A stretch of DNA of 57,436 nt from Candidatus Saccharimonadia bacterium (GTDB taxonomy: Bacteria > Patescibacteriota > Saccharimonadia > UBA4664), in NCBI GenBank assembly GCA_038245115.1, contig JBBRSS010000006.1, positions 1 through 57,436 of the forward strand, given 5' to 3'. Under the pieces are notes generated by a model. It saw only the letters and a program-made list of their open reading frames with translations. It was not told the DNA's origin and ran no database searches. A program made the translations under genes and the position numbers. Below, one piece after another: positions 207 to 18,405 of the stretch; within the stretch, counting starts at the first letter, position 1, and each line of letters starts with the position of its first letter.

Positions 207-1196
207 GTGAGCCGCTTGGTCAAACTCATGGATAAGCTACATGCCGAGGAGCAATTTAGCAGTCTGGAGAATCGGAAGGAGTTTATTAAAAATCTTACCT
301 TTGAAGATCTCCAGAATTGGCTGATTAGGGTCAATGGCATGGTACGGGAACTCCCGGCTGCTCAGCGAACACTCGACGGGAGTGGGGTGGTTGAGGTGAG
401 TAATAACTTCGGCTACGCTGCAGCGGAATATGTTCCACCAGCAAAAGGGGATCGGCAAGAACTATTGTCTGAGGCATTTAACGCTGCTCATGGGCTAGAG
501 CCCGAAAAAGCGGCTACGTTGCTAGGGTTATCGATTAATACGATTCACCCGTTTATGGACGGTAACGGCCGCACAAGCAGGTTTGTATACACTATGTTAG
601 CTCATGGGTACGATGGTTCCCAGGAAGATAAGCAACTGTTAAATGATGTACTGGAGAATGGCGAGGGGCGGAAGGTAGTTGACCTTGACCCAACACGTGC
701 AAAGCTCTCCGAGCGCTGGTCCCAAAATCGTGTTGCAAAGGTTGCCAATGAGCACGGGTATCAAGGCAAACTGCCGAATTATTCTTATCTCGGGTCTGCA
801 TACGAAGCGGGGGATGTGGGAACTTATTGTCCGGATACGTTGCTGGTAGGTGAGCACGTGTCAGCCGATGCACGGGCTAAGCTACATGCCGTATTGATGG
901 AGAAAGATTTCAACATGCCGAATCTTTTTGCTCACTGTTTCGAGGAGGACCGTAAGCCAGAGGATTTCATGAGGTCTTTTGAGGATGGGAGAATGATTAT
1001 TGAGAACGGGAAACTAATAGGTCAAATGACCGAGGAAGAGATAGCTCGCCTAAGAATGGGCCAAGATGAGATTAAGAAAGAATACGTTCAGGGTTTGGTG
1101 CGGGTTTTTGCCAACCCAGAAAATGCTGAACTGGCAGATAGCTTGGTCACATTCTATCGTCCACAAGCTGGAGATGATCTGCCGCCATCGCACTAG
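207..1196 (+). CDS. Fic/DOC family protein (putative AMPylase)
   Basis: 329-aa ORF (GTG 207, alternative ATG 228). Canonical Fic motif HPFMDGNGRTSR (HxFx[D/E]GNGRxxR). Confidence 0.85.
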   Translation: MSRLVKLMDKLHAEEQFSSLENRKEFIKNLTFEDLQNWLIRVNGMVRELPAAQRTLDGSGVVEVSNNFGYAAAEYVPPAKGDRQELLSEAFNAAHGLEPEKAATLLGLSINTIHPFMDGNGRTSRFVYTMLAHGYDGSQEDKQLLNDVLENGEGRKVVDLDPTRAKLSERWSQNRVAKVANEHGYQGKLPNYSYLGSAYEAGDVGTYCPDTLLVGEHVSADARAKLHAVLMEKDFNMPNLFAHCFEEDRKPEDFMRSFEDGRMIIENGKLIGQMTEEEIARLRMGQDEIKKEYVQGLVRVFANPENAELADSLVTFYRPQAGDDLPPSH

Positions 1197-2630: not shown

Positions 2631-4937
2631 ATGCCTCAAGTGACCAAGCAAGACTGGCGAGAGGCAAATCGCAAACTGCGGCTACCGGAGAAGGCAGCAT
2701 TCATTACGCTGAGTGCGCTTATTATTATTGCGGCAATAGTTCCAGGGCTGTTCTTGGTGACAGCGCCAAAGGCGTCGGCTTTGGGTAATGTCGGTCCTGC
2801 GCCAGGAGATTTTCAGGGTCGGCGAATGACTTTTGTGGTGGATAACACGCCATATGTGGGCGCCACTGTTACGACGGTTATGACCTACTTCAGAAATAAA
2901 AATGGTAATGCAGTAACGATTTCTAGCGCCGGGCTGACAGATTCGCCGAATTACGACACTTTCTATTCTGCCGTTGCGGGAAATCCAATCGTCACTCGTT
3001 ATGATTTGTTTGATGTCCAGACCGGTGCGTTGCTGGATACTTGTAACGCGAATAAAAATACGGCCACGTGTGTTCTGAACTTTAACTTTCCCGCCGCAAC
3101 AGGCGTAGATATTCGTACGGGATATTTTGGGGCCCAACTGCGGGCGACGCTAACTCCAAGGGCTGGCGAGGTATACCAGAACGGTTTTTGGGTCACTCTG
3201 AGTGCAGGAAACGTAGTTGGGTTCGACTCGACAAGTTTGGCCACGACCTTTGCAATGCAAGAAAATATAGTAGCTAAAAGATATACGGACTGGACGCTGA
3301 AGTTTGGGGCAGATTGCACGGTGCTACCTCCGGCGGGGAAGTTGGTGCCGTTTATTTGGTACGATCCGGATAATGGCGACCCAGGGGTTCAACCGCAAAA
3401 GTCGTCTTTTAGGATAATTGACGTGACGGGTGCAGCGAAGGTGGTTAGTTTGGTGCTGCCTGGCGGGAACGATTTTACGACCGGAGCTTCGCCGGCTTCA
3501 TTGAACTCCGCGACCAATAGGGTGACTCCGGGGAATAACTCCAAGACAAACGGCCATGTGTTTTTTACTGCGTTGCCGGGTCACATCTATCAGGTGGAGT
3601 GGGATCATGTTTATTCTAATAACACGCTACAGTTCCAGCTACCGTTCGATAGTATTTATTTTATGACAAAAGGCTGCGCAATTAAGCCTTATACGATCAC
3701 GCCGACTCTGAGCACCGCACTTAATCATCTCGAGCCTGGGACTGCCGGCATTGTCAACGCAGTCGCCACGGCAAATATGGGGCCGACGGCACCATACTCG
3801 ATGAATGTTGCGGCGTCGGGGACGGCCAGTGTGCCCGCCCCGGCATACGCGCCGGCGCCTTCGTGGGCTATGGGAGCTTTTGCCGGGGCGGGGGCCCAGA
3901 CTAGATCCTTCAGCGTCACAATTGCTAACACCGTGCCTGATGGTACGACTATATGTTTTACAAACACAATAAATCCAGCTAAATGGACCCAGGCGGGGGG
4001 TTTTACGGCTCTGACATCGGCGCCATTATGCCTGCCGGTCTATCGAACGCGCTATCCGGCAGTTGAGGGCTTCAAGGGTGATATTCATGCCGGAGGCGGA
4101 ATGTGTGTGCCCGAAACCAATGTCCTAGCCGGCCTGGGCTCGCCTGGTCGGGTGAGCGGCAATATTAACGGCGGATCGTTTGGGCAATACGTGGTATCGG
4201 CCTCAACCACCATCAATAGTTTTGGCTCGGCGGGCTCGGTGGGCAATACGGCCCTAACAAGGCTTAATTTTGGCTCGGCGGGAGCATATACCCAAGTGTG
4301 CCGACCGAATTTGCTATTGGCGGCGAACGACTACCGAAATAACGGGGGAACGGGAATTACTACCAGATCCGTAGCCTCGGTGCCGCTGTTTGATGTTACG
4401 AACCAAGGAGGAATATGGTATTTCGACGGCGGGGGGGATTTGAGTATCACCGGGACGGTTGGAGCATCGTTGAGCATCGTAAAGACCGGCCCCGGCTTAG
4501 TGAAGATAGTTCCGTCGGCATCAACTCCGACCGGGATCGTCCGAAGCGCCGCAGCATACCCGGCACATTCGTCTCCGGGAGTGGAAGGTATTCCGTCGCT
4601 GGGCGTGATAACTGCAGGAGACATTGTGATTCCGGCGGCTGTTAGAAATGTCGATGCGTACCTGTTTGCCAATGGGCTGATTGATACCTGCGAGGAAGGT
4701 CAATCGGCGGTGGCAGCCACAATAAAACTATGCGCGAATACTCTGGCCGTAAACGGGTTCTTAATGGCGAATAAGATTGCCTTTCGCAGGTTGGGGCCGC
4801 CCAATACTAAAGGGATAGTCCCGGCGGAGATTGTTACGTTATCACCGCAGATATATTTGAACCCGCCAAAGTTCTTTGACTCCTCTGTCGACGGTACATT
4901 TATCGAGGGGTTGGGCGAGAAGCAGCCACTGTATTAG
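2631..4937 (+). CDS. Large secreted/anchored protein, pilus-operon paralog A (no family recognised)
   Basis: 768-aa ORF with an N-terminal TM anchor (AAFITLSALIIIAAIVPGLFLV). From about aa 352 onward it is homologous to ORF 5567-7453 (GDIHAGGG, GGSFGQYVVSAST, VDAYLFANG.IDTCEEGQSAV, LSPQIYLNPPKFFDSSVDG, GEKQPL[YF] end). Confidence 0.85.
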   Translation: MPQVTKQDWREANRKLRLPEKAAFITLSALIIIAAIVPGLFLVTAPKASALGNVGPAPGDFQGRRMTFVVDNTPYVGATVTTVMTYFRNKNGNAVTISSAGLTDSPNYDTFYSAVAGNPIVTRYDLFDVQTGALLDTCNANKNTATCVLNFNFPAATGVDIRTGYFGAQLRATLTPRAGEVYQNGFWVTLSAGNVVGFDSTSLATTFAMQENIVAKRYTDWTLKFGADCTVLPPAGKLVPFIWYDPDNGDPGVQPQKSSFRIIDVTGAAKVVSLVLPGGNDFTTGASPASLNSATNRVTPGNNSKTNGHVFFTALPGHIYQVEWDHVYSNNTLQFQLPFDSIYFMTKGCAIKPYTITPTLSTALNHLEPGTAGIVNAVATANMGPTAPYSMNVAASGTASVPAPAYAPAPSWAMGAFAGAGAQTRSFSVTIANTVPDGTTICFTNTINPAKWTQAGGFTALTSAPLCLPVYRTRYPAVEGFKGDIHAGGGMCVPETNVLAGLGSPGRVSGNINGGSFGQYVVSASTTINSFGSAGSVGNTALTRLNFGSAGAYTQVCRPNLLLAANDYRNNGGTGITTRSVASVPLFDVTNQGGIWYFDGGGDLSITGTVGASLSIVKTGPGLVKIVPSASTPTGIVRSAAAYPAHSSPGVEGIPSLGVITAGDIVIPAAVRNVDAYLFANGLIDTCEEGQSAVAATIKLCANTLAVNGFLMANKIAFRRLGPPNTKGIVPAEIVTLSPQIYLNPPKFFDSSVDGTFIEGLGEKQPLY

Positions 4938-5048
4938 ACCTGACGGGCGTGTTTGAGATTGAGATAATAGTAGTGGTAGAGGCTGTTTTGTCAAAACAAT
5001 CATAACCGGATTGACGCAAAGCTATTTCCTGTACACAATAGCTATAGC

Positions 5049-5570
5049 ATGCCGCAAATATATGTAGAAAAGAGAATACTGGATTGGCAGCGCATTACTG
5101 GTGTGGCGATTGCGGTATTAATTGTGACTGCGATAGTGGTCTTTGCTGCCGTTTTAAACGCTCAGAAACCCGATACGAAGGCTGCGACGAAAGCAATCAT
5201 CTTAAATGCCCAAGACAAAGCATTTTCGAATGACTATGATGGAGCGATAACGTTGCTGAAGGCTCAACTAAAGTCGGCTTCAACGGACGAGGAAAAGCTG
5301 AGCATTCATACTGCCATAGGCTCGAATTACGAATCCAAGAAGGATTTTCAGTCGGCGTTGGCAGAGTTTAAGCAGTCTCAGGCGATCGCACACACCTACG
5401 GTACTGATATGTCGGTGGCCCGAGCGGCGGAGGAGGCGGCCGATAATGCTACGGCACTGGCGAACTATCGACTTTGCTATCAGGGGATTAAGGACGGCAC
5501 CTATAAGGGTCATTATGGTGACCTAAGCGAAGTGCAGGTTGCCATCACGAGGGTAGGGGGGACGCCATGA
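5049..5570 (+). CDS. Membrane-anchored helical-repeat (TPR-like) protein
   Basis: 173-aa ORF with an N-terminal TM (ITGVAIAVLIVTAIVVFAAVL) followed by an Ala/Leu/Lys-rich helical region. Its stop overlaps the next start (ATGATG at 5567). The TPR assignment is by eye only. Confidence 0.6.
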   Translation: MPQIYVEKRILDWQRITGVAIAVLIVTAIVVFAAVLNAQKPDTKAATKAIILNAQDKAFSNDYDGAITLLKAQLKSASTDEEKLSIHTAIGSNYESKKDFQSALAEFKQSQAIAHTYGTDMSVARAAEEAADNATALANYRLCYQGIKDGTYKGHYGDLSEVQVAITRVGGTP

Positions 5571-7453
5571 TGCGAAAACGCTTAGCAGCTATTTTGATGG
5601 TTTTCTCGGCGATATTGCCGCTATTGCAATCGGCCCCTGCTTCGGCGGCACCATATTATGCTCGCGCAGAGCATCGTGGTTACTTCACTAATGTTCTTGA
5701 CGAATGGGGGGGTAGTGTTCTGACGAATGGTATTCACCCTAGTCCGGCGCCGCTGTTGAATGGGAAGCTATGCACTGCGTCATTTATTGAGCAAATTATT
5801 GCATTTACGCAACAGAGTGCGGATTTAGAGTCTCTATATGGGGCGAAGTTCATTATTTTGACGATGCTTGGCGAGCCAGCCGGAGTCGATATGAACCTGG
5901 CGCATAGTTTGGCGGAACAGGCAAGATGGATTCAGCTGGTGACAATGTATTCGGACAACGGCTGGATTTCGTGGGGGCCGGCCTGCAAGGGCGTGAACGC
6001 AACCTATCAGTACAATACTTACTGGCAGGGTAACAATGGCGGTCAGCCCGGAGTGCAGCCTAATCCTTATGATGATGCTTGGTTTAATGACCCCGGCGGT
6101 TCGACGCCCGATGCAATCATTTTCCATAATCCGGCTAAGCCGACGGATTTCTATATGATCCGTGAGGAATGCGGCAATCCGATTGGTGATTTTCAGCCGA
6201 TTGGCTCGTCTATAGCCCCGTTTGCGATTACGCCTTCGGTAACTGTGACTGGGAGTGCTGGGAGCCCGACTCATCTTGAGCAGGGGCAACTTTACGCGAT
6301 TAACGCAATCGCAACTAATGGCGGTTCTGCGACACCAGATTTTACGATGAATGCCACCCCGACAGCTCCAGCCCCGCCAAAAGTTAGCGCGTTATCGCCG
6401 TTGAATATTTATTCCGGGCCAACTTCCTGGTCGGAAACGGGTTTCCCGGGGGCAGGGGGTACCCAGGTGGAGAGTTATAACTTAACAATATCTACCACTG
6501 TGCCCGATGGGTCGTGGATATGTTTTAGCAATACTATCAATCCGGCTTCATGGACGGCGGCCGCTGGATATGCGCCGGCGACTTCGCCACCGTTATGTCT
6601 TGAGGTATACAGCACGCGTTTCCCGACCGTCCAAGGTTTCAACGGCGATATCCACGCCGGCGGGGGGCTATGCTTGCCGGGGTCAAATACTCTAGGTACT
6701 CCGAGCTATCCCGGGTTTGTTTCCGGGAATTCAAACGGCGGGTCGTTCGGCCAGTATGTAGTATCGGCTTCAACTAGCATTAATCACTTTGGTTCGGCCG
6801 GGTCGCCGGGTAATACTGCTTTGACGACTCTGAATCTTGGTGCGGCTGGGGCGTACACTCAGGTGTGCCGACCGGATTTGCTGGATGCGGCAATCTCAAA
6901 ACGGCCGGCGGGCGCTCCGACGGTGTCGTCGCCGGTTGATGTGTCTGGGTTGAGCGGGGTGTATTACTTTGACGGGCCAGGAGACCTAAACGTATCCGGG
7001 ACGGTGGGGGCCTCGGTGACGATTGTGAAGACAAGCCCTATTGGGGTTGTTCGGGTTAACGGCAACATAACTCGGAATAATAGTTTTAGCTACGCGGCTC
7101 ACGGCGTGCCTTCGCTGGGGATAATAACAGATGGCAATATCGTAATTGCGGCTGGCGTGAAGCAAGTAGATGCGTACTTGTTTGCAAACGGGGAGATTGA
7201 TACGTGCGAGGAAGGTCAATCGGCAGTGCCAGCCACAAGGAAGCAGTGTTCGAACACCCTGGCAGTAAACGGTTTCCTGATGTCGAACAAAATCTCGTTT
7301 CGCAGGCTCGGGCCGGCGAACGTTTCCGGAGTTCAGACGGCCGAGAAGGTGACGTTATCGCCGCAAATTTATCTGAACCCGCCAAAGTTCTTTGACAGTT
7401 CTGTCGATGGCGGTTTTCTCGAAGGCCAGGGCGAGAAGCAGCCGTTGTTTTAG
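5567..7453 (+). CDS. Large secreted protein, pilus-operon paralog B
   Basis: 628-aa ORF with a Sec-type signal peptide (LAAILMVFSAILPLLQSAPASAAP). From about aa 218 to the end it is homologous to paralog A, with DNA runs such as tgcgaggaaggtcaatcggc shared. Confidence 0.85.
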   Translation: MMRKRLAAILMVFSAILPLLQSAPASAAPYYARAEHRGYFTNVLDEWGGSVLTNGIHPSPAPLLNGKLCTASFIEQIIAFTQQSADLESLYGAKFIILTMLGEPAGVDMNLAHSLAEQARWIQLVTMYSDNGWISWGPACKGVNATYQYNTYWQGNNGGQPGVQPNPYDDAWFNDPGGSTPDAIIFHNPAKPTDFYMIREECGNPIGDFQPIGSSIAPFAITPSVTVTGSAGSPTHLEQGQLYAINAIATNGGSATPDFTMNATPTAPAPPKVSALSPLNIYSGPTSWSETGFPGAGGTQVESYNLTISTTVPDGSWICFSNTINPASWTAAAGYAPATSPPLCLEVYSTRFPTVQGFNGDIHAGGGLCLPGSNTLGTPSYPGFVSGNSNGGSFGQYVVSASTSINHFGSAGSPGNTALTTLNLGAAGAYTQVCRPDLLDAAISKRPAGAPTVSSPVDVSGLSGVYYFDGPGDLNVSGTVGASVTIVKTSPIGVVRVNGNITRNNSFSYAAHGVPSLGIITDGNIVIAAGVKQVDAYLFANGEIDTCEEGQSAVPATRKQCSNTLAVNGFLMSNKISFRRLGPANVSGVQTAEKVTLSPQIYLNPPKFFDSSVDGGFLEGQGEKQPLF

Positions 7454-7511: not shown

Positions 7512-8552
7512 ATGGGACTATTTGTTAAGGAAACTGAATTCTTCGGTCTGGATATCGGCTCAACCGCCATCCGGTTGGTCCAACTTCGCCGTGGTGGCGA
7601 CCACCCCGCTTTGGTGGCTTACGGTGCTATACCGGTGCCGGCTAACTTGGCGGCGAGTGATTCGAGCCTAGATCAGGATAAGATGGCGGAGTTGATTCGC
7701 CAGTTGGTGCGAGAGAACCAGATTAGTCTCAAGAATGTGGTGGCGGGTCTATCGGCCACGAAAGTGTACGCGACCGTTATTACCACGCCGAAGCTCGAGA
7801 ACGCCCAGCTGGCCAAGGCGATTCGTTACCAGGCTGAGCAGTATATTCCGATGGCGATTGATCAAGTGAAGTTGGATTGGGCCGTGATAGACCAGAGCAA
7901 GGACGGCAAGCAGCTTGAAGTGTTGCTGGTGGCGGCGCCGAATTCGGCGGTTGATAAGTATGTGAGTATCCTGGAGAAGGCCGGCCTTGAGCCTTTGGGG
8001 CTGGAGCCAACTGCGACGGCTGTGGCACGAGCTTTGATACCCAAGAATAATCTCGCAGTTGTTATTTTGGATTTTGGATCGTTAGACTCGGATATTTCGA
8101 TTGTATGGAATAATGCACCGCGGTTGATTCGGTCCGTTTCGGCTGGCGGGCTGACTTTGGTGCGGTCGGTGGCGCAGAATCTGGGTCTGGATGAAGTGCA
8201 GGCAAATCAATTTACTTATAAGTTTGGGCTTACTCAGTCTAAACTCGAAGGCCAAGTATTTAAGGCTCTCAAACCAACGCTTGATAACCTGGTGGGTGAA
8301 GTTGAGAAATCGGTGAAGTATTTTGTGGGGCGTTATCCCGACGTCAAGATTGAAAAGCTAGTCGTGTCCGGTAGTCCCGCCGCCCTGCCAGAGCTTGGGC
8401 CGTTCTTGGCCAACTCTACTGGCTTACCGGTTGAATTTGGCAATGCCTGGGTGAACGTGTCGTATCCTTCGGGGTTGCAAGATAAGTTGATGGGGCTTTC
8501 CTCGGAATATGCGGCGGCGGTTGGTCTGGCGGGTCGGGGATACATGGAATGA
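7512..8552 (+). CDS. pilM: Type IV pilus assembly protein PilM (actin-like ATPase fold)
   Basis: 346 aa. N-terminal FGLDIGSTAIRLVQL is typical of PilM. It is immediately followed by PilN/PilO-like genes. Confidence 0.85.
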   Translation: MGLFVKETEFFGLDIGSTAIRLVQLRRGGDHPALVAYGAIPVPANLAASDSSLDQDKMAELIRQLVRENQISLKNVVAGLSATKVYATVITTPKLENAQLAKAIRYQAEQYIPMAIDQVKLDWAVIDQSKDGKQLEVLLVAAPNSAVDKYVSILEKAGLEPLGLEPTATAVARALIPKNNLAVVILDFGSLDSDISIVWNNAPRLIRSVSAGGLTLVRSVAQNLGLDEVQANQFTYKFGLTQSKLEGQVFKALKPTLDNLVGEVEKSVKYFVGRYPDVKIEKLVVSGSPAALPELGPFLANSTGLPVEFGNAWVNVSYPSGLQDKLMGLSSEYAAAVGLAGRGYME

Positions 8553-9139
8553 GTATCCTGATAAACCTACTCCCGGATCTGCGTCAGGCAAAACTGTTGG
8601 AAAAACGCCGCCGTCAACTGGTGAGTGGCGTGTCGGTAGTTATTTGGAGCGTCTGCGGGGGTGTGATCGTATTGCTCTCGATTTATTGGGGCGGCCAAGA
8701 GGCTATTATTAAGAATAAGAGCGCGAATATCGTTCGGGACACCAAACAGCTCAGGGAAGTTCCGGGTATTTACGATGCCTTAACAGCTCAGCAGCATTTG
8801 GCTTCATTGCCGAGTCTCTATGCTAAGCGAGTGTATATTTCGAAATTTTTAAGTGCCTACACGGCGTCAAATCCGGCCGATGTAGCGTTAACTACCATGG
8901 CGCTTGATGCTACTAATCTGCTAAAGGTGAGCGGTACGGCAAATTCGTATGCCGCGGTGGCCAAGCTGGCCAGGGCCCTCGAACAGTCGAATTTGACAGT
9001 TGGATCTAATGCTGCGGTGAAAAATATTCCCTACTTTACCAATGTTCATATCGGCGGAGTAAATTCGGGTGCAACTGGGAAAGTAAACTTTACGCTCGAT
9101 GTTGTAGTTGGGCCGGGAGCGGTAACAAATGGCAACTAA
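8549..9139 (+). CDS. pilN: PilN-like pilus assembly protein
   Basis: 196 aa. INLLPDLRQAKLLEKRRRQL followed by a single TM. 4-nt overlap (ATGA) with pilM. Confidence 0.7.
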   Translation: MSILINLLPDLRQAKLLEKRRRQLVSGVSVVIWSVCGGVIVLLSIYWGGQEAIIKNKSANIVRDTKQLREVPGIYDALTAQQHLASLPSLYAKRVYISKFLSAYTASNPADVALTTMALDATNLLKVSGTANSYAAVAKLARALEQSNLTVGSNAAVKNIPYFTNVHIGGVNSGATGKVNFTLDVVVGPGAVTNGN

Positions 9140-9746
9140 GCAAGATAAACTAGCCGGAAACAATTTGTATATCGTGCTGTTATTGGTGACGTTACTGGCT
9201 CTGGGCTCAACGGCCTTGATAGGTAAGGCGCTGGTGAGCAAGATTGTGCGTGATACAAAAGTTGTGACGGCCAAGGATAAGGCCGAAAAACAACTCACTG
9301 AGAATTTGACTACCGCACCAAAGCTAGTGGACGCATATAATGCGATGACTTCCGAGAAGAGTGTACTGGCGGACGCACTTCCGACAAGTTCAGATCTGCC
9401 ATCATTACTGGTGACGTATGAGAATATGGCGGCGCAGGCAGGCATTAAACTGACTAGTGTAAGTACGGTTGCCTACGGAACGCCGGTTGTTCCAGTAAAA
9501 ACTACGTCATCGACAAGCGGCATTGTTACGCCGGCTCCAAAAACCTATACCACCAGTTATAATTTTACGGGCAGTTATGTATCGCTAACTAAATTATTCG
9601 CTGCAGTTGAACTGAACGCTCGTCCGATGCGAATCACGGGCGTGAATTTAAACGGTAGCGGTACGGCATTGAATGGCGATATCACCGTTGAAACATATTT
9701 CCAGGATAAGGCCGAACTACCAATTGGGACGGAGATAATAAAATGA
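9129..9746 (+). CDS. pilO: PilO-like pilus assembly protein
   Basis: 205 aa with an N-terminal TM followed by a coiled region. The call rests on its position after pilN, which it overlaps. Confidence 0.6.
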   Translation: MATKQDKLAGNNLYIVLLLVTLLALGSTALIGKALVSKIVRDTKVVTAKDKAEKQLTENLTTAPKLVDAYNAMTSEKSVLADALPTSSDLPSLLVTYENMAAQAGIKLTSVSTVAYGTPVVPVKTTSSTSGIVTPAPKTYTTSYNFTGSYVSLTKLFAAVELNARPMRITGVNLNGSGTALNGDITVETYFQDKAELPIGTEIIK

Positions 9747-9994
9747 AAAAGAAAGATTTGATATATTTGATAGTCGCTGTGACGATATTCCTTGTAACGG
9801 GATATGTTGGGTATACGCAGTTGATACCAAAGAAGGCTTCGGCTAGCGTAGTCACGGTGGAGGTAGTCGGATCAATCCCGGATCATTTGGATGAGGCCGG
9901 ATTGGCGGCTCTGAGTGACAGAACTAAAGTTCAGGATTTCAATTCGCCGGTAGACTTAACTGGCCTGGGCAACGCAGCAGTATTTGGGCGATAG
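9743..9994 (+). CDS. Small single-pass membrane protein in the pilus operon
   Basis: 83 aa with TM LIYLIVAVTIFLVTGYVGY. 4-nt overlap with the pilO-like gene. Confidence 0.55.
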   Translation: MKKKDLIYLIVAVTIFLVTGYVGYTQLIPKKASASVVTVEVVGSIPDHLDEAGLAALSDRTKVQDFNSPVDLTGLGNAAVFGR

Positions 9995-10023
9995 TCGAAA
10001 ACGGGGAGATGAGGGCATGACAA

Positions 10024-11796
10024 ATGCTATCGGTTGAAAGCCAGCATAGAATAGAGGAATTGATTCTCGAGGGTAAGCTGCTTACGTCCGGGAATTTGGA
10101 GACGGCTAAAGTTGACGCGCTCAAGGCTTCGAAGCCGTTGATTGCCTATATTGCTGAGAAAAATTTGGTGGGAGAGGAAGATCTGACGCGCATCTCCGCT
10201 GAGGCTACAGGTGTGCCATACGCCAACTTACGAACCTTAACCGTGCCTGACGATGTTATGAGGCTGCTACCGAAGGAGACCGCTGAATCTTATATGGCGG
10301 TACCGTTCGGGATGCAGAACGGTCGGTTGGCAGTGGCTATGCTCGACCCGACAAACATTCAGGCCGTGGATTTTTTGGGGCGCAAATTGGGGCGTACACT
10401 GACGGTGTATTTGGCATCGCGCGGGTCGATCGACCATGTGCTAGGGCAGGCACACGCAGATGTTTCGGCTGATTTGGCGGTGGCTATGGATATTGCGAAT
10501 GTCGAAGATCATCCCAAGGTGGCTTTGAAGAACCCCAAAGCAATGCAGAATTTAGTGCAGGATGCGCCAATTACCAGGGCACTGAATGCGATACTGGATT
10601 ACGCAGCTCAGAGCCGCGCTTCGGATATTCACGTGGAGCCGCGCGAGCACGAGCTAAAGATTCGCTATCGTATTGATGGTATTTTGCAAGAAACTATGAC
10701 TTTGCCGAAGAGTATTGAGCCGGCCCTGATATCTCGAATAAAAATTTTGTCCAATCTGCGTATTGATGAACACCGCATCCCTCAGGATGGTCAGTTTCAG
10801 ATTAGCTCCAGCGGCCGGGAGATTGACCTGCGTATTGCTATTTCGCCGGTGGTCTGGGGTGAGCAGGTGGTTATTCGGTTGTTAGATAAGACGGGCACCG
10901 TGTTGACCCTGGAGGCTTTGGGCTTCCGAGGTCGAGCGGCTCGGCTGATTTCGGCGGGTATCCACCGACCGCACGGCATGACGCTGTCGACTGGTCCTAC
11001 CGGTTCGGGTAAGTCGACCACGCTGTACGCGGTTGTCCAGGAGCTTAAGGATGTTTCTATCAACATTGTGACGCTTGAAGACCCGGTGGAGTACAAGATG
11101 GACGGGATTAATCAGATTCAAGTAAATGCGGATGTGGGGCTGACGTTTGCTTCGGGGTTGCGCAGCATTTTGCGCCAAGATCCTAACGTGGTGCTGGTGG
11201 GGGAAATTCGGGACAAAGAGACGGCTGATCTGGCTGTACAGGCCGCACTGACCGGCCATGTGGTGTTGAGTACCATTCACACCAACTCAGCGGCCGGCGT
11301 GTTGCCGCGGTTGCTGGATATGGGGATTGAGCCATTCTTGATTGCCTCAACCGTGAATACTGTTATTGGGCAACGGTTGGTTCGCAAACTTTGCGGCAAG
11401 TGCAAGCAATCTTATGAGTCGAATCCTGCCGAAACAAAATCGCTTAAGACTACCCTAGAGAACGTGCTGCCAAAAACGAATGCCGAGACGGAGAAGGTCA
11501 AGAAGGATGTTGGCTACGATGTGGTTCCGACGGCAGATCAGGATACGTTTAAGCTCTATAAGGCGGTGGGCTGCAGCGAGTGCGTGAAGGGGTATAAGGG
11601 TCGAATAGGTATTTATGAAGTGTTTGCCATGACGCCCGATATGGAGAAGCTACTGCTGTCTCATTCGACGACGAGCGAGGTCCAAGGTCAGGCAGCGAAA
11701 GACGGCATGCTCACAATGAAGCAGGACGGGTATTTCAAGGTCTTGAATGCACTCACGACAATAGAAGAAGTGGCGCGGGTCGCCGCAGATTTCTAA
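10024..11796 (+). CDS. pilB: Type IV pilus extension ATPase PilB (GspE family)
   Basis: 590 aa. Walker A GPTGSGKST, a GspE-type core (LRQDPNVVLVGEIRD) and a C-terminal Cys cluster CGKC...CSEC. Confidence 0.9.
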   Translation: MLSVESQHRIEELILEGKLLTSGNLETAKVDALKASKPLIAYIAEKNLVGEEDLTRISAEATGVPYANLRTLTVPDDVMRLLPKETAESYMAVPFGMQNGRLAVAMLDPTNIQAVDFLGRKLGRTLTVYLASRGSIDHVLGQAHADVSADLAVAMDIANVEDHPKVALKNPKAMQNLVQDAPITRALNAILDYAAQSRASDIHVEPREHELKIRYRIDGILQETMTLPKSIEPALISRIKILSNLRIDEHRIPQDGQFQISSSGREIDLRIAISPVVWGEQVVIRLLDKTGTVLTLEALGFRGRAARLISAGIHRPHGMTLSTGPTGSGKSTTLYAVVQELKDVSINIVTLEDPVEYKMDGINQIQVNADVGLTFASGLRSILRQDPNVVLVGEIRDKETADLAVQAALTGHVVLSTIHTNSAAGVLPRLLDMGIEPFLIASTVNTVIGQRLVRKLCGKCKQSYESNPAETKSLKTTLENVLPKTNAETEKVKKDVGYDVVPTADQDTFKLYKAVGCSECVKGYKGRIGIYEVFAMTPDMEKLLLSHSTTSEVQGQAAKDGMLTMKQDGYFKVLNALTTIEEVARVAADF

Positions 11797-11891
11797 AAAA
11801 ACCGACGGTGTGCATTCTCAAGCTTCTTGTGCTTTAATAGTGATATCAGTAGAGGTGAAAGTTGGAGAGAAGCGCGCTCAAAATCGAAACA

Positions 11892-12932
11892 ATGCTCGAG
11901 CAGGTGAGTCGGGCAGAAGCCTCGGATCTTCACCTGCAAGTTGGACTAGCCCCAATGCTACGGGTGGACGGGGGTTTAGTGCCCATCGAAGACACTCCAA
12001 AATTGGAGCCTTCGGACGTGGAGAAGCTAGTCTTTTCCATCCTGGATGACGATCAGAAAGAGATTTTGTTAAAAGATAAAGAAGTGGATTTTTCCTTTGC
12101 ATTCGGCAATTATGGACGTTTTCGGGTAAATGCCTTTCATGAGCGCGGCAATTTGGCGGCGGCATTTCGGCTGATACCGTCGAAAATTCGGACGCTAGAA
12201 GACTTGGTGATGCCGAAGGTGCTGCAGGAGTTCACCAAGTTCCCGCGCGGCTTGGTGCTGGTGACCGGCCCGACTGGCTCCGGTAAAAGTACGACGCTGG
12301 CGGCGATGGTCGACAAGATCAACTCCGAGCAGAGTAAGCACATTTTGACCATTGAAGACCCGATTGAGTACGCGCACACCTCCAAGAAATCGATCGTGGT
12401 TCAGCGTGAAATTCATTACGATACCTACTCTTTCTCGGCGGCTTTGCGCTCGAGTTTGCGCCAAGATCCGGATGTAGTGCTCATTGGTGAGATGCGAGAT
12501 CTGGAAACTATTGCGGCGGCTGTGACGATTGCTGAAACCGGCCACCTGGTGCTGGCGACGCTGCACACTAACAGCGCGGCACAGTCTATCGACCGTATGG
12601 TGGACGTGTTCCCGCCGCATCAACAGCAGCAGATTCGGGTGCAGCTGGCTGGTATGCTGCAGGGCATTGTGAGTCAGCGATTGGTGCCGGGCATCGGCGG
12701 TGGTCGGGTGGTGGCGGCCGAGATTCTGGTGGTTACTGGCGCTGTACGTAACATTATTCGCGAGGGCAAGACTCACCAGCTGGACGCAGTTATTCAGACC
12801 GGGGCTGAGTATGGGATGCAGAGTATGGACCGTCAGCTGATTCAGCTGGTGCAAGAGGGCAAGATTACCTACGATGAAGCCAAGAATTTTGCGGTAGATC
12901 TGCAAGAGATGGAAAGGTTGATGCGCGGGTAG
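11892..12932 (+). CDS. pilT: Twitching-motility retraction ATPase PilT
   Basis: ATG 11892 gives MLEQVSRAEASDLHLQVG. Walker A GPTGSGKST, LRQDPDVVLIGEMRD, and a size of ~346 aa. The ORF track starts at TTG 11862. Confidence 0.9.
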   Translation: MLEQVSRAEASDLHLQVGLAPMLRVDGGLVPIEDTPKLEPSDVEKLVFSILDDDQKEILLKDKEVDFSFAFGNYGRFRVNAFHERGNLAAAFRLIPSKIRTLEDLVMPKVLQEFTKFPRGLVLVTGPTGSGKSTTLAAMVDKINSEQSKHILTIEDPIEYAHTSKKSIVVQREIHYDTYSFSAALRSSLRQDPDVVLIGEMRDLETIAAAVTIAETGHLVLATLHTNSAAQSIDRMVDVFPPHQQQQIRVQLAGMLQGIVSQRLVPGIGGGRVVAAEILVVTGAVRNIIREGKTHQLDAVIQTGAEYGMQSMDRQLIQLVQEGKITYDEAKNFAVDLQEMERLMRG

Positions 12933-12935
12933 CTT

Positions 12936-14162
12936 ATGCAAACTTTTAACTATACTGCCCACAAAACTGACAACGGCGAGCTGATTAAGGCTGAGGTACA
13001 GGCCGAGAGTGAGCGGGCGGCAGCGAAGTTGCTGATGGCGCAAGGCTTGTTCCCGATTGATATTTCATCCAAGGCGGCCGAGAGTTTCTTGGAAAAAAAC
13101 GGCATCGGATCCAGAGTGGGCGCCAAAGACCGGGTGATATTCACGCGCCAGCTCTCAACATTGATTAATGCCGGGCTACCGTTGACCCAGTCGCTCCATA
13201 CGGTTTCAGACCAGATTACCAACAAGACTCTCAATCATATTGTCGGTGAGGTTGTGACGAGCGTGGAGGCCGGAACAAGCCTGAGCCAATCGTTTGCCAA
13301 GTATCCTAAGGTCTTTAGTGATATATACGTGAGTTTGGTCGCGGCCGGGGAAACATCCGGTTCGCTCGATAAAGCGCTGGAGCGCATTGCTAACCAGCAA
13401 GAAAAAGACGCAGCTATCGTGGGCAAGATTCGCAGCGCGCTGATTTACCCGGTGATTGTGTTGGGCGTGATTATGCTGGTTCTGGTGTTTATGCTTACGA
13501 CGGTGCTGCCTCAGGTAGGGGGACTGTACCACGATCTGCATAAGCCGCTGCCGTTCCTGACTCAGATACTAATGGTTATTTCGACCTTCATTATGAATTT
13601 TTGGTATCTATGTATCCTTGGTGCCATTGGTTTGGTATATTCGCTCCGAAATTATGTTAAGACTGAAAACGGCCGGTCTATCGCGGATCAGTTTAAGCTG
13701 AATGTGCCGATATTTGGTCGGATTTACCGAAAAGTATACATGGCGCGGTTCTCGCGCACCCTTGGCACAATGTTGCAGAGTGGTATCCCAATGCTCGAGG
13801 CGCTGCGGATCGTGAAGGACGCTATTGATAACGTGCATGTGGAGAAAGTTATCGCAAAGTCGATGGAAGAGGTGAAGGGGGGCAAGGCGCTGTCGACTTC
13901 ACTCGAGGGCGAGGCGGCCTTCACGACGCTGGTGCCGCAGATGATTAAGATTGGTGAACAGTCGGGCGCGATCGACTCGATGCTCGACCGGGTGGCGACC
14001 TACTATGAGGACGAAGTAGACGAAGAGGTGAAGAACATCTCGACTACTATAGAGCCGATAATGATGGTGGTATTGGGCGTAACGGTGGGCGGCGTGATAG
14101 CGGCCATTCTGATGCCGGTGTACTCGTTGGTGGGTAGCGGTAGTATTGATAATCTGAAATAA
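12936..14162 (+). CDS. pilC: Type IV pilus platform protein PilC (GspF family)
   Basis: 408 aa, polytopic, with the duplicated GspF-type domain pattern. Sits between pilT and the pilin gene. Confidence 0.9.
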   Translation: MQTFNYTAHKTDNGELIKAEVQAESERAAAKLLMAQGLFPIDISSKAAESFLEKNGIGSRVGAKDRVIFTRQLSTLINAGLPLTQSLHTVSDQITNKTLNHIVGEVVTSVEAGTSLSQSFAKYPKVFSDIYVSLVAAGETSGSLDKALERIANQQEKDAAIVGKIRSALIYPVIVLGVIMLVLVFMLTTVLPQVGGLYHDLHKPLPFLTQILMVISTFIMNFWYLCILGAIGLVYSLRNYVKTENGRSIADQFKLNVPIFGRIYRKVYMARFSRTLGTMLQSGIPMLEALRIVKDAIDNVHVEKVIAKSMEEVKGGKALSTSLEGEAAFTTLVPQMIKIGEQSGAIDSMLDRVATYYEDEVDEEVKNISTTIEPIMMVVLGVTVGGVIAAILMPVYSLVGSGSIDNLK

Positions 14163-14171
14163 CGAAATAAG

Positions 14172-14201
14172 TTGACACTGGCATAGCATAAGCGCGATAC
14201 T
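14172..14201 (+). promoter_or_regulatory. Candidate sigma70-type promoter of the major pilin gene
   Basis: TTGACA (14172-14177), 18-nt spacer, GATACT (14196-14201), about 35-50 nt upstream of the pilin start. Confidence 0.4.
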
Positions 14202-14234
14202 AGATCCAAGTTGTAATAATTCAACGTCAAATAA

Positions 14235-14732
14235 TTGAAAGGTGAGTTTAAGGTGAGTAACCTCCTCAAGAAAGAAAAGGGATTTACCCTTATAGAAATA
14301 GTTCTCGTCTTGGCCATCGCGGGGCTTCTGCTCGTGATTGTGTTCTTGGCAGTATCCGGAGCTCAGAAGAGCCGTCGCGACACGCAGCGCAAGAATGATC
14401 TGAGCACGGTTGCAGCTCAGCTCGAAAGCTTTGCTTCGAACAACAATGGTAAGTATCCGGAAGATGCTACGCTACCTACGGCGACGACATTTGCAGCCTT
14501 TGCTACGGCATATAAGCTTAATTTGGTTACAGGCAATTTGAAAGATGCTCTAAGCGGTAATGTTTATACGTTTGCCGACGGGGCAACTCCGACCGTTCCG
14601 TCTGCGACCACATCGGCCGGGGTAAGCTATGTCCTCGGTAGTGACTGTGACGGAGTGGCGTCCGGAACTCGGGTGTATGCCGTCTACATCGGCCTCGAGC
14701 AAGGTGCGAAGAATTGCCGAACCAACAAGTAA
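14235..14732 (+). CDS. pilA: Major type IV pilin (prepilin)
   Basis: Class III leader and N-methylation motif KEKG|FTLIEIVLVLAIAGLLL. C-terminal Cys pair (GSDCDG...AKNCRTNK). The likely true start is GTG 14253, after the GAAAGGTGAG RBS. Confidence 0.9.
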   Translation: MKGEFKVSNLLKKEKGFTLIEIVLVLAIAGLLLVIVFLAVSGAQKSRRDTQRKNDLSTVAAQLESFASNNNGKYPEDATLPTATTFAAFATAYKLNLVTGNLKDALSGNVYTFADGATPTVPSATTSAGVSYVLGSDCDGVASGTRVYAVYIGLEQGAKNCRTNK

Positions 14733-14750
14733 ATCCGGTTTGACCGAAAA

Positions 14751-14775
14751 AAGAGGCCCTCGGGCCTCTTTTTTT
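14751..14775 (+). terminator. Rho-independent terminator/attenuator after the pilin gene
   Basis: 8-bp stem aagaggcc/ggcctctt with loop ctcg, followed by a T-run. Confidence 0.75.
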
Positions 14776-14790
14776 GTGTATAATCTGGTT

Positions 14791-15606
14791 ATGGTTAATG
14801 ACGCACAAATGGTGGTGGCAGTAATGTACGGGGTGATCGGAGGGCTGTTTGGCCTAATGTTCGGCTCGGCGATTAACGCGATGGTGTGGCGACTGAAGGT
14901 GGGCCGCAGTTGGGTGAAGGGGCGGAGTGTTTGCCCGGATTGCGACCATACGCTGGCGGCTAAGGATTTGGTGCCGGTGCTGTCGTGGATGGTGCTGCGT
15001 GGCAAGTGCCGATATTGTCGGGCGCCTATTCAGGACACTCCGGTGGCTGAGCTGGTGACAGCAGGGGTGTTTGCGGTGTCGGTGGCAGTTATTATGCCTA
15101 CCGCAACAGTTGGGTACGTTAAGCTGGGCTTTTGGTTGGTCTTGGTGGTGCTAATGCTGGTGCTCGCCGTATACGATGCGCGTTGGTTGGAACTGCCAGA
15201 TAGCATAATGAAGCCGCTGGTGGCGGTGGCTTTGGTCTACGCGGCTACGATGGCCTGGTTGACCCACTCACCGCAGGTCCTTTTGGGATCGCTGGAGGCA
15301 GCCGTGGTGGCCGGTGGCGCCTTTGCTTTGCTGGTGGCCGTGTCGAAGGGCCGGGCGATGGGCGGGGGAGACGTGAAGCTGGCTTTTGCTATGGGGCTTA
15401 TTTTGGGGGTGCAAGGGACAGCCGTGGGAATGTTGGTGGCGTTTAATACGGCAGCAGTCGTGGGAGTAGTACTTATTGCCACGAAGAAGAAGGGGTTTAA
15501 GAATCAGATTCCCTTTGGGCCGTATTTAGTGGGGGGTACAGTTGTGGCGTTTTTATTCGCCAGGTCAATTGCGGGCTGGTATTTGCGACTAAATGGCTTG
15601 CAGTAA
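14791..15606 (+). CDS. pilD: Prepilin peptidase / N-methyltransferase PilD (A24 family)
   Basis: ATG 14791. Cys motif CPDCDH...CRYCRAPI, active-site GGGDVKL, polytopic. The upstream ORF extension to 14629 overlaps the pilin gene and the terminator. Confidence 0.9.
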   Translation: MVNDAQMVVAVMYGVIGGLFGLMFGSAINAMVWRLKVGRSWVKGRSVCPDCDHTLAAKDLVPVLSWMVLRGKCRYCRAPIQDTPVAELVTAGVFAVSVAVIMPTATVGYVKLGFWLVLVVLMLVLAVYDARWLELPDSIMKPLVAVALVYAATMAWLTHSPQVLLGSLEAAVVAGGAFALLVAVSKGRAMGGGDVKLAFAMGLILGVQGTAVGMLVAFNTAAVVGVVLIATKKKGFKNQIPFGPYLVGGTVVAFLFARSIAGWYLRLNGLQ

Positions 15607-15642
15607 GCGGGCGAAGTTGATTGTGATATATTGAAAGTACTT

Positions 15643-16317
15643 ATGTCTAGAAAACATACATTGAGGAGTCAGTCGGGGTTCACCTTGGTTGAAATAATAT
15701 TGGTACTGGCTATTAGCTCCACGATGCTAACGATTGCTTTTGTGGGGCAGCGTCAGCTGCGAAGCAGAGCGCAGTTCGATGCGGCAATTGAGAAGGTGGT
15801 GTCCAGTATCTCGAACGCCCAAAATCAGGCGACGGCGGGCGTGAACACGCAAGGATCGGGGGATGGGCTGGCGGCCGGTATGTGCCCGACGGGACCATCG
15901 CCAACAGTTGCGAATCCGGTTGTGTTCGCGGGTACGACCTGGACTATAGATGGGAAGGCTAGCGCTCCATCTGTTGCGACAATTTCAATTGACTATTACA
16001 AGGCGATACCGGGGCTGAGCCCGGCTTCCGCTTGCATCTTTGATAGTCAGTCAATCGGGTTGCCTAGTGATGTTTCGCTAGTTGGTGCCGCAGCAAGACG
16101 GGTGGCCGGGCTGGTATTTATGAGGACGAATAATGGATCGCTTGATGTGTGCCCATTGCAGTTGCCGACGGTACCGGCTTTCCAGGCACAATCGAGGCAG
16201 GCATTCGTCGGGAGTGCTTGCCCGAATGCAGCGCTCACTTTTACTCTGCAAGACACTGAAGGCCATATTTCGGATATTCAGGTAGATCCCAGCGGCTTAG
16301 CGAAGAGGTTGAATTAG
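15643..16317 (+). CDS. Minor pilin / pseudopilin
   Basis: ATG 15643 gives MSRKHTLRSQSG|FTLVEIILVLAISS, a prepilin leader plus hydrophobic helix. Confidence 0.8.
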   Translation: MSRKHTLRSQSGFTLVEIILVLAISSTMLTIAFVGQRQLRSRAQFDAAIEKVVSSISNAQNQATAGVNTQGSGDGLAAGMCPTGPSPTVANPVVFAGTTWTIDGKASAPSVATISIDYYKAIPGLSPASACIFDSQSIGLPSDVSLVGAAARRVAGLVFMRTNNGSLDVCPLQLPTVPAFQAQSRQAFVGSACPNAALTFTLQDTEGHISDIQVDPSGLAKRLN

Positions 16318-16318
16318 C

Positions 16319-16897
16319 GTGAGTAGATTGAGTGATACTTTGAAAGCAGTTATGGCGCCAGAGGGTGGGTTTACGTTGATTGAGCTGTTGGTGGCGATGT
16401 CAATATTTAGTTTTATGCTCCTGATAGTATCGAGCGGTTTTATAAATATCGTGCATATTCATGATCAAGCGGTGGCGGCCAATACAGTTCAGGATAATGC
16501 GCGCACAACAATGGATGAGCTGGTGAGAGGGGTTCGAACTTCGAACGCGGTCTTGCCGAGTGCGGCGAATACTTTGTGCCTGTCGAATTCGATTAACGGG
16601 ATCTATACGCTGTATTACGTCACTGGCGGAGTTATGAGGCGGGCCGATTCGCCAACTTGCACGGCGCCAGGTTTGAACGTTCAAGATATTACCTCGAGCA
16701 TAGTCAACGTGGTTGATTTTACGGTGGTGGTAGATGCAACCAGCAGGCCCAAGCAGCAGGTGAATTTATCGATAACGGTGACCCCGGTGAACGGCACCGC
16801 CCAGTTAGTATCGGGCAAGTGGGTCTGTGGCCCCAACAACTCGGATCGGACATTTTGCTCAATAATAACGCTTAATTCTGGGGCGGTATCACGATGA
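16319..16897 (+). CDS. Minor pilin (PilW/PilV-like)
   Basis: PEGG|FTLIELLVAMSIFSFMLL prepilin motif. 192 aa. Confidence 0.8.
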   Translation: MSRLSDTLKAVMAPEGGFTLIELLVAMSIFSFMLLIVSSGFINIVHIHDQAVAANTVQDNARTTMDELVRGVRTSNAVLPSAANTLCLSNSINGIYTLYYVTGGVMRRADSPTCTAPGLNVQDITSSIVNVVDFTVVVDATSRPKQQVNLSITVTPVNGTAQLVSGKWVCGPNNSDRTFCSIITLNSGAVSR

Positions 16898-17892: not shown

Positions 17893-18405
17893 ATGCGCGG
17901 CAAATATATATCATTTGGAGAACGAGGCGATACCCTTATTGAGGTGACGATGGCTTTGGCCATTTTGTCTTCGGTGTTGTTGTCTTCGACCGTGATTGCT
18001 ACCCGGGCATCAACGCTGGGTCAGGTGGCGGCTGAAAGGACAAGATTGGCAGGTGAGGCCCAGGAACATGTTGAGTCTATGCATGGTTTTCGGGATAACC
18101 ATACCTGGGCAGAATTCTTGGATGGGCAGACCTCGCCATCGTATCAAGGCGTGTTGAGTGCCCGGAGCTCGATTGGGTGCAGAGTTACCTCTCCGTGTAT
18201 GCACATGGGGCTTAACCCGGCTTCGCACTTACCGTTGGGTGGCGGAGTGGCAGGTTCGGTTCCGGCTTCGTATATCGAGATCGCGATCGATCCAGATCCG
18301 GCGTCGACCCCGCCCCAGTTTGTGGACGTAACAGTCAGCTATGGGTTCGATAACCGTGGCGGGGGGGGCGCAAAGTACCGGGCATATCAAGACGCGGTTT
18401 ACTAA
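17893..18405 (+). CDS. Pilin-like protein, probably the 5' part of a frameshift-split modular pilin
   Basis: GERG|DTLIEVTMALAILSSVLL prepilin-type leader. The ORF stops 37 nt after a G8 run (18361-18368). Confidence 0.7.
   Translation: MRGKYISFGERGDTLIEVTMALAILSSVLLSSTVIATRASTLGQVAAERTRLAGEAQEHVESMHGFRDNHTWAEFLDGQTSPSYQGVLSARSSIGCRVTSPCMHMGLNPASHLPLGGGVAGSVPASYIEIAIDPDPASTPPQFVDVTVSYGFDNRGGGGAKYRAYQDAVY

Follow-up and report, generated by a model that had tools for sequence, protein, structure and literature searches.

A diverse family of modular exported proteins with exchangeable heads, encoded beside type IV pilus genes in Saccharimonadia, and its possible role in host contact

Contig JBBRSS010000006.1 of a Candidatus Saccharimonadia bacterium (assembly GCA_038245115.1), the whole 57-kb stretch of which is referred to here as the window, carries two large open reading frames (ORFs) just ahead of its type IV pilus (T4P) genes. 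These are ORF A (2631–4937, 768 aa) and ORF B (5567–7453, 628 aa), both on the plus strand, as are the partner, pilus and minor-pilin genes of the window described below. We found that they belong to a large, diverse family that goes without recognition in profile databases, in which one conserved C-terminal module is combined with different N-terminal heads and whose genes recurrently adjoin pilM. Proteins of this kind may work together with the pilus in contacting a host or another surface.

A conserved module and tail beneath exchangeable heads

When 1.84 billion cluster representatives were searched exhaustively with a profile, 2,387 family proteins passed E ≤ 1e-3, of which 312 also passed E ≤ 1e-30; a word-indexed protein search, which badly underestimates the family, gave 15–16 relatives, all of them unnamed or ‘hypothetical protein’. 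Neither A nor B matched Pfam or NCBIfam, and sequence and profile searches with the heads, the module and the whole proteins against Pfam, NCBIfam and the Protein Data Bank (PDB) matched no known family. The initial annotation, made from the letters of the window alone, had recognised no known family either; this was borne out, and fold searches of PDB and BFVD were likewise without a significant match. A pattern scan of GTDB species genomes placed relatives only in metagenome-assembled genomes (MAGs) labelled Saccharimonadia, Saccharimonadales, Patescibacteria or unclassified bacterium, and the neighbouring pilus genes of the window are 75–96% identical to those of relatives’ MAGs. So far as searched, the family is homologous to no characterised pilus-associated protein. 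The literature on Saccharibacteria pili, as far as it is searchable, does not discuss it, and the papers on the TM7x and TM7i pili make no mention of such a gene.

A residues 344–768 and B residues 209–628 align over ~441 aa at 56% identity and 69% positives (BLASTP, E = 1e-149), as expected from the initial annotation, which had described a C-terminal module common to the two ORFs; outside this alignment BLASTP found no significantly similar segment between A and B. By both the module hidden Markov model (HMM) and the tail motif, these are the only two module copies in the window. The motifs DIHAGGG, QYVVSAS, VDAYLFANG, NGFLM, PQIYLNPPKFFDSSVDG and GEKQPLF/Y were all found, and many of them are invariant across homologues.

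Local HMMs built from a first alignment and run on 158 retrieved proteins revealed a canonical layout consisting of a signal peptide, a B-type head of ~170 aa, an immunoglobulin (Ig)-like domain of ~130 aa and a module of ~280 aa that ends the protein. ORF B follows it throughout. A Sec-type signal peptide (aa 1–27, 5567–5647), recognised by inspection from its …APASA↓AP site and with an Ala27 that is invariant in a 15-sequence alignment, is followed by an alpha/beta head domain (5657–6205, HMM E = 1e-69), an Ig-like beta-sandwich spacer (6218–6565, HMM match) and the module with its tail (6590–7450). ORF A carries a minority type of head. Its export signal (aa 1–50, 2631–2780) combines a basic n-region and a hydrophobic segment with the sequence APKASA↓LG, and leads into an A-type head (aa ~51–345, 2781–3665) that matches no recognisable family, an Ig-like beta-sandwich spacer (3720–3995, local HMM match) and the module including the C-terminal tail (4020–4934, HMM E = 1e-111). 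The N-terminal hydrophobic segment of A had initially been called a transmembrane anchor. The segment is there, but an AxA-type signal-peptidase motif follows it, which puts the anchor reading in doubt, and it may instead be a cleavable signal with a long n-region. Both N-termini are Sec-type with AxA sites, as judged by inspection, and neither protein matches N_methyl or any pilin model, whereas the true pilins of the window do.

Among the best 150 of the 2,387 family representatives we counted at least nine head classes on the one module: the B-type, a 23-member A-type group and seven smaller groups or singletons. The A-type is the largest alternative class, and the head of ORF A clusters with those of 22 other representatives. 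The proposal of alternative heads on a conserved C-terminal module, made initially from two proteins, is thereby extended to the family. Alignment of the A-type and B-type head profiles (hhalign, E = 0.11) joined only the last hairpin and a Cys, and the idea that the A-type head is a distant B-type homologue was left unsupported. A Pfam scan of the 53 members with non-canonical or extended heads gave matches limited to the spacer (DUF11 in 7 of the 53, plus CARDB and DUF7507) and to a single head with PA14, a glycan-binding domain.

Cys202 and Asn204 of the B-type head are conserved in 81 of 81 sequences, within a C-[AG]-N-P-x-G motif (aa 202–207 of ORF B); the same 81 heads keep Asp169 in 96% and Gln154 in 74%, with no conserved His. 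Because Cys202 is the sole Cys in 19 of them, it is not a structural disulfide partner, and the conservation pattern suggests that this region of an extracellular domain may serve as a reactive site or one of covalent chemistry. In A-type heads, too, a Cys stands at the equivalent position, immediately ahead of the Ig-like domain. For thioester-domain (TED/TQxA) adhesins there was no Pfam or NCBIfam match at E ≤ 1, and their order is the reverse, with the Cys motif preceding the Gln motif, whereas Gln154 lies N-terminal to Cys202 in the B-type head.

A full-length AlphaFold2 model of B from 15 sequences was mediocre (pLDDT 69), and its fold search returned weak Ig-like matches alone, such as sortase pilins and the MG domains of complement C3. 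Modelled by itself with a 107-sequence alignment, the module gave a confident prediction (pLDDT 92.3, pTM 0.90) of an almost all-beta solenoid with short helices only. The initial annotation had proposed a structure search on this module; Foldseek against PDB and BFVD found no match at E ≤ 1e-3, and no well-characterised non-pilus family was matched. The top matches were DUF3494 ice-binding proteins (4nu2 and 5uyt, E 0.015–0.04; DUF3494 in BFVD, E 0.02), at TM-scores of 0.2–0.34 and root-mean-square deviations of 9–13 Å. The highest TM-score among solved structures was that of ComZ (6qvi; E 0.08–0.2, probability 0.33–0.77, TMq 0.32–0.40), which is below significance, and the tapirins 6n2b, 6n2c and 4wa0 scored 0.11–0.13 (E 0.24–4.9). 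The model would place the module in the same broad fold class as ComZ and the tapirins, a likeness that does not establish homology. Four module cysteines (Cys 369, 434, 547 and 561 in B numbering) are conserved and suit extracellular disulfides, so the solenoid is probably disulfide-stabilised. The charged residues D361, R435, D535, R580 and E593 are invariant or nearly so, while His363 of the DIHAGGG motif varies across the family.

Conservation in the family peaks over the last ~30 residues. In A this tail (4845–4934) reads PQIYLNPPKFFDSSVDGTFIEGLGEKQPLY, and in B (7361–7450) it likewise forms the C-terminal end of the module. In the 107-sequence alignment P606 and E623 never vary, and Y602, N604 and P605 hardly do. 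A [YF]xNPP motif is present in 105 of 121 complete modules; the distance from NPP to the C-terminus is 22 residues in 86 of these 105 (range 21–24), and the proteins end in P-L-F (69), P-L-Y (22) or P-L-N (14). The consensus runs E-x-V-x-L-x-P-Q-I-Y-L-N-P-P, then ~22 aa, then G-E-x-x-P-L-F-COOH, with GEKQPLF as the form in the window, while a divergent subgroup has …PE-x-[YF]-L…, ~20 aa and ELPPRF-COOH. Model confidence is lowest here within the module, the last ~20 residues scoring 69 and 54. C-terminal sorting signals of the LPxTG, PEP and GlyGly types are absent; the end (…GEKQPLF-COOH) is hydrophilic, and since no hydrophobic segment follows, the tail is not a sortase- or exosortase-type signal.

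The tail can also stand without the stalk. At L018 (L-numbers denote loci of relatives fetched for comparison), a tandem cassette (9405–13685) contains a 378-aa protein (12549–13685) in which a B-type head with its CGN motif is joined to the tail by a Pro/Thr-rich linker alone, both the Ig-like domain and the beta-solenoid being absent. The first large gene there, upstream (9950–11908), is full-length but ends just before the tail (…LHRLGS*). Conserved, strictly C-terminal, of lower model confidence and found without a stalk, the tail is best read as a putative docking or sorting peptide. The initial suggestion of a common stalk or docking module has accordingly gained a confident solenoid model, a fixed C-terminal tail and a head–linker–tail variant; for docking itself, these features are suggestive.

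The membrane partner, synteny and evolution of the cassette

A small ORF of 173 aa (5049–5570) lies between the two large genes, 111 nt after A and overlapping B by 4 nt, and 58 nt separate B from pilM; the spacings first noted were essentially right. The small ORF has a basic N-terminus (MPQI…), one transmembrane helix and ~3 TPR repeats. On its own the window copy is sub-threshold for TPR (TPR_12, E = 0.017), but 15 of 17 orthologues match Pfam TPR models (best 1.9e-8), and the partner family profile matches natural TPR proteins in PDB at ~1e-24 and TPR proteins of engineered consensus design at values as low as 1e-82. The initial description of a TPR-like membrane protein between A and B of a single pass thus holds, and the TPR assignment is firm at family level. 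The positive-inside rule predicts that the TPR domain faces outward.

Every B-type copy for which upstream sequence is available is preceded by a TPR partner, usually with a 4-nt overlap, and so is the A-type gene in the MAG UBA6017. ORF A of the window is without a partner of its own, the sole TPR gene sitting between A and B. In L001 and L009 a third head type is preceded by a different small protein (transmembrane plus beta), and in L013 the TPR gene and the large gene have been duplicated as a unit. These arrangements suggest that the real unit is a translationally coupled TPR-plus-large-protein pair, nearly always found together. Divergence of the partner correlated with that of the head (Mantel rho 0.34, p = 0.01) and of the module (rho 0.29, p = 0.03) in global alignments; a first correlation had suggested that the partner tracks the head, but the Mantel test did not separate head from module. 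A start of MPQ[IV] followed by basic residues and a transmembrane helix is common to ORF A (2631–2660), the partner in the window (5049–5075) and nearly all partners of L001–L028, which hints at a shared targeting signal or at a common origin of the N-terminal segment of A and the partner anchors.

Synteny was compared over 33 fetched loci, some of them redundant. In 23 distinct loci the last module copy stands directly before pilM-pilN-pilO-(83 aa)-pilB-pilT-pilC-pilin-pilD, down to a PilM identity of 57% in the most divergent pilM-adjoining locus (L019). In the window, this machinery extends over 7512–15606: pilM (7512–8552), pilN (8549–9139), pilO (9129–9746), the 83-aa ORF (9743–9994), pilB (10024–11796), pilT (11862–12932), pilC (12936–14162), a pilin gene (14235–14732) and pilD (ORF 14629–15606), named from Pfam labels on the same genes in syntenic relatives. 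Gaps between the last module gene and pilM are 45–220 nt, on the same strand and with no convincing terminator. A promoter and terminator scan gave counts at or below shuffled expectation, which says nothing on co-transcription. At L029 and L032 a further cassette precedes the contig end; L033 has only ~0.9 kb of downstream sequence, with no pilM within it; and at L018, L022, L024 and L027 unrelated genes follow and the cassette is not next to pilM. Cassettes stand in tandem in the window and at L009, L013, L018, L029 and L032. In the cultivated oral Southlakia epibionticum ML1, where synteny is otherwise kept, the order is S18, EF-P, TlyA and YchF (minus strand), an 11-nt gap and pilM, with no cassette there. 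The T4P genes of S. epibionticum are essential, so the missing cassette at its ychF/pilM junction marks an accessory rather than core pilus machinery. The pilus-gene link pointed out at the start is therefore a recurrent one, while the survey of relatives then proposed has also brought up four cassettes elsewhere and an empty S. epibionticum locus. The cassette is a lineage-specific accessory of a pilT-containing pilus locus.

The cassette evolves far faster than the pilus genes beside it. Between the window and UBA6017 the non-synonymous distance (dN) is ~0.04 for PilM and PilB, whereas for ORF A and its UBA6017 orthologue (P0003) it is 0.10 in the head and 0.22–0.32 in the Ig-like domain and module. 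Over 14 cassettes the TPR partners share a mean identity of 32%, the heads 36% and the modules 49%, against 82% for PilM. The head of ORF A is about 86–87% identical to that of P0003, and several blocks of its module are closer to those of B in the same genome (82, 82 and 77%) than to the orthologue (62, 67 and 57%).

The initial annotation had supposed that 20-nt identical runs could support gene conversion between A and B, and had proposed per-domain dN/dS. The latter proved unusable, synonymous sites being saturated against the nearest relative (proportion of synonymous differences, pS, 0.72–0.89), and only dN and local dips in pS can be read. The longest exact DNA match between A and B is 23 nt (4858/7374), and pS between them, 0.74–0.83 and near saturation over most of the module, dips modestly to 0.58–0.62 in the last ~90 codons. 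The tandem pair at L009 falls to 0.38–0.42 in one stretch, and that at L013 is saturated throughout. On these values we rejected the view that the modules resemble each other chiefly through gene conversion. At saturated pS, the proportion of non-synonymous differences (pN) in the module is 0.08–0.2, indicating strong purifying selection. The pattern suggests mosaicism and perhaps patchy conversion, with module similarity kept mainly by purifying selection.

Minor pilins and other features of the contig

Downstream of the pilus machinery lies a minor-pilin cluster with a vWA-domain ORF at its end (15631–19063; N_methyl, PilX_N and VWA matches). Within it, a pilin-like ORF (17893–18405, N-terminus …ERG↓DTLIEV…) ends just past a G8 homopolymer (~18363–18370) and is overlapped, in another frame, by the ORF at 18341–19063, which has a 20-proline run (~18431–18490) and the vWA domain (Pfam E = 2.9e-18). 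Altering the G8 tract by 1 nt would fuse the two into a modular vWA pilin; either the tract permits phase variation by slipped-strand mispairing or the assembly is in error here. An extra 1–3 kb between pilB and pilT in four relatives (L009 18703–20939, L010 8083–9277, L014 15468–19672 and L015 13420–15164), with pilB apparently split or frameshifted in L014 and L015, may reflect insertions, pseudogenes or mistakes in MAG assembly.

Upstream of the cassette region, a Fic-domain protein is encoded at the left edge of the window (207–1196; Pfam Fic, E = 1.5e-10). It is followed by a 258-aa ORF (1543–2319) with a signal-anchor-like N-terminus, two internal repeats (…WWLVVQVLDDHPRFYGPYKF… and …ARWYIVLRFLDDSAKRLDLGPLVY…) and no family match, a 298-aa homologue of which occupies the equivalent position upstream of the UBA6017 A-type cassette (L005 8228–9124). 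Beyond the pilus locus we noted a minus-strand tyrosine recombinase of XerC/D or phage-integrase type (within 19060–24206), a minus-strand cutinase-like secreted hydrolase (20936–22180) and a membrane protein of the Wzy_C O-antigen-ligase-like kind with TPR repeats fused to it (22254–24206). GC skew is positive in all 2-kb bins of the window (0.06–0.32), the cumulative skew climbs monotonically and most larger ORFs are on the plus strand; it appears that the contig belongs to a single replichore and that co-orientation is strong.

Known pilus-associated proteins, a proposed mechanism and its alternatives

We class the family among pilus-associated non-pilin surface or secreted proteins. TcpF of the toxin-coregulated pilus (TCP) in Vibrio cholerae and CofJ of the CFA/III pilus of enterotoxigenic Escherichia coli (ETEC) are operon-encoded and secreted, and each docks on the tip minor pilin by a flexible terminal peptide with key aromatics; TcpF also has an Ig-like domain (PMC9565799). 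Like them, A and B are predicted to be Sec-exported non-pilin products of pilus-operon genes with a lower-confidence terminal peptide that ends in an aromatic residue. That peptide is C-terminal in A and B and N-terminal in TcpF and CofJ, whose pili are type IVb with a secretin, whereas the locus here is T4a-like (PilMNO, PilT) with no outer-membrane secretin. A and B are also far bigger proteins that combine swappable heads with a beta-solenoid stalk and go with a TPR partner, and no PDB sequence match and no fold match to TcpF or CofJ was found.

Tapirins of Caldicellulosiruptor are non-pilin, T4P-locus-linked surface proteins with a triangular beta-helix and no other known relatives (bioRxiv 10.1101/359786). 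They resemble A and B in their position beside a T4P locus and in the beta-helix class, but with reversed polarity, a conserved N-terminal part preceding a variable, cellulose-binding beta-helix; they also lack a TPR partner and a conserved C-terminal tail. ComZ, the tip pilin of the Thermus thermophilus competence pilus (PDB 6QVI), has an irregular triangular beta-solenoid whose nearest relative is FfIBP (4NU2), an ice-binding protein with a face-packing alpha-helix (PMC6561018). In ComZ the solenoid is inserted in a pseudopilin fold, whereas A and B carry Sec signals and lack a pilin domain; and the modelled module differs from DUF3494 proteins in having no FfIBP-like face-packing helix and no Pfam DUF3494 match.

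The T4a-pilus tip adhesins PilY1/PilC, and also the modular pilin PilB of S. sanguinis, are comparable as large T4P-presented adhesion modules in which a variable binding part is carried on a conserved docking part. PilY1/PilC have a C-terminal beta-propeller and their genes lie in the minor-pilin operon, whereas the C-terminal module of A and B is modelled as a solenoid and their genes lie upstream of pilM, and neither protein matched Pfam Neisseria_PilC. A class III signal, found in modular pilins such as S. sanguinis PilB, is absent from A and B. The separate vWA-domain ORF of the window fits the PilY1/PilC or modular-pilin class better than A and B do. Nor do these resemble a secretin with its pilotin, as Pfam finds no secretin domain in them and the module is modelled as a single-chain beta-solenoid.

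In the mechanism we propose, A and B would be Sec-exported modular surface proteins working with a retractile, pilT-containing type IV pilus. The exchangeable head would bind a ligand or host surface, and the Ig-like spacer and beta-solenoid would act as a rigid stalk. The C-terminal peptide would dock the protein on a conserved partner, for which the tip or minor-pilin complex of the pilus or its envelope machinery is the likeliest choice, the minor-pilin cluster of 15631–19063 offering possible docking partners. The TPR membrane protein would keep the large protein at the membrane, as a holder or chaperone, until it is handed over. With two cassette members whose heads are unrelated, the cell could then have two binding specificities on one pilus system. 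The export signals, conserved Cys, variable heads, spacer and solenoid, invariant tail, TPR partner and pilus linkage together point to surface or host contact, as do the DUF11, CARDB and DUF7507 matches of the spacers, the PA14 head and the fast evolution relative to PilM. That two of the three nearest structural neighbours (ComZ and the tapirins, neither significant) are T4P-associated also counts in favour. Taking sequence, models and analogy together, we give about an even chance to the reading that A and B are coupled to the pilus and contact a host or surface, with exchangeable heads on a stalk that ends in a docking peptide.

Several points weigh against it. A and B have no pilin-type N-terminus by sequence, the vWA ORF of the minor-pilin cluster already offers a conventional candidate tip adhesin, a recognisable binding domain occurs in one head only and the four cassettes away from pilM are flanked by unrelated genes. 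The signals of TcpF and CofJ, N-terminal and at work in a secretin-dependent type IVb system, would have to be transposed to a C-terminal peptide in a monoderm-like bacterium of the candidate phyla radiation (CPR). The TPR partners show no obvious conserved peptide-clamp residues, and the similar Mantel correlations with head and module do not single out the partner’s binding target. Physical contact with the pilus is something we infer from sequence, modelling and analogy. A more specific version, in which the C-terminal peptide is a loading or secretion signal of a type IVa pilus in a monoderm CPR bacterium, presenting or releasing interchangeable host-recognition proteins at the tip, is argued by analogy and can be put forward only tentatively.

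The proteins might instead be pilus-independent envelope adhesins or S-layer-like proteins tethered by the TPR protein, their place before pilM reflecting co-regulation or a permissive ychF/pilM site. The constant unit is, after all, the TPR-plus-large pair and not that pair plus pilM; four cassettes lie elsewhere; a pilin signal is lacking; terminal peptides are common ligands of TPR domains; and the ychF/pilM junction is variable, and empty in S. epibionticum. Yet adjacency to pilM has been kept on the same strand and with short gaps in 23 loci across deep divergence, and a TPR–tail lock fits poorly with partners that diverge to a mean of 32% identity and conserve no concave-face residues while the tail stays nearly invariant; we consider this explanation unlikely. 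Rather less probable still is a secreted enzyme, either a beta-helix acting on polysaccharide of the host’s or the cell’s own envelope, in the manner of pectate or alginate lyases and tailspikes, or a B-type head that serves as a Cys-dependent enzyme or covalent thioester-like domain gripping or opening the host wall. Right-handed beta-helices are typical of polysaccharide lyases and hydrolases, low-ranked fold matches include polysaccharide lyase family 6 (PL6) and pectate lyases, and both the near-invariant charged residues of the module and the fully conserved, often unpaired head Cys, with D169 and Q154, would suit catalysis. Against this stand the lack of any Pfam or NCBIfam match to a lyase, hydrolase or thioester domain, lyase fold matches of TM ~0.12–0.23 at E > 1, the variable His363 and a head without a conserved His; unrelated heads on one module argue, too, that the heads set specificity.

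A structural pilus accessory, in which a pilotin-like TPR protein and a large beta-rich collar spanning the wall or S-layer replace the PilF/PilQ pair functionally, strikes us as improbable. The gene stands at the head of the pilMNO operon, its module is under strong purifying selection, the conserved C-terminal and variable N-terminal parts are arranged as in secretins and the TPR partner recalls the PilF/Tgl pilotins. Such a collar is hard to reconcile with its absence in S. epibionticum, where T4P genes are essential, with the lack of a Pfam secretin match and the predicted single-chain solenoid, or with interchangeable unrelated heads, tandem copies, occasional non-pilus sites and evolution far faster than that of PilM and PilB. 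Least probable is a ComZ-like receptor: these bacteria are naturally competent and nucleotide-auxotrophic, and the solenoid would bind extracellular DNA to be taken up by way of the pilus. The best TM-score is indeed to ComZ (TMq up to 0.40), which shares FfIBP (4NU2) with the module as nearest neighbour; the gene is T4P-linked and Saccharibacteria are competent. But the match is not significant, a pilin domain is lacking, the gene is missing at the locus of the competent S. epibionticum and the diversity of heads would be hard to explain.

For the way in which the ultrasmall, episymbiotic Saccharibacteria recognise their bacterial hosts and bind to them, the literature has pointed to type IV pili together with adhesins yet to be identified (PMC11623550, PMC10633639, PMC9894109), and these three papers do not mention the family. 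The family, which merits a profile-database entry, offers testable candidates for host specificity, and its sharply defined tail motif could be used directly in binding assays. It would be the third unrelated beta-solenoid protein associated with type IV pili, after ComZ and the tapirins. If the more specific version, with the tail peptide as a loading or secretion signal, is true, the TcpF/CofJ principle would extend from the type IVb pili of enteric pathogens to another pilus class, another terminus and another phylum, and the cassette upstream of pilM would be a host-range determinant of environmental Saccharimonadia that diversifies by head swapping and tandem duplication.

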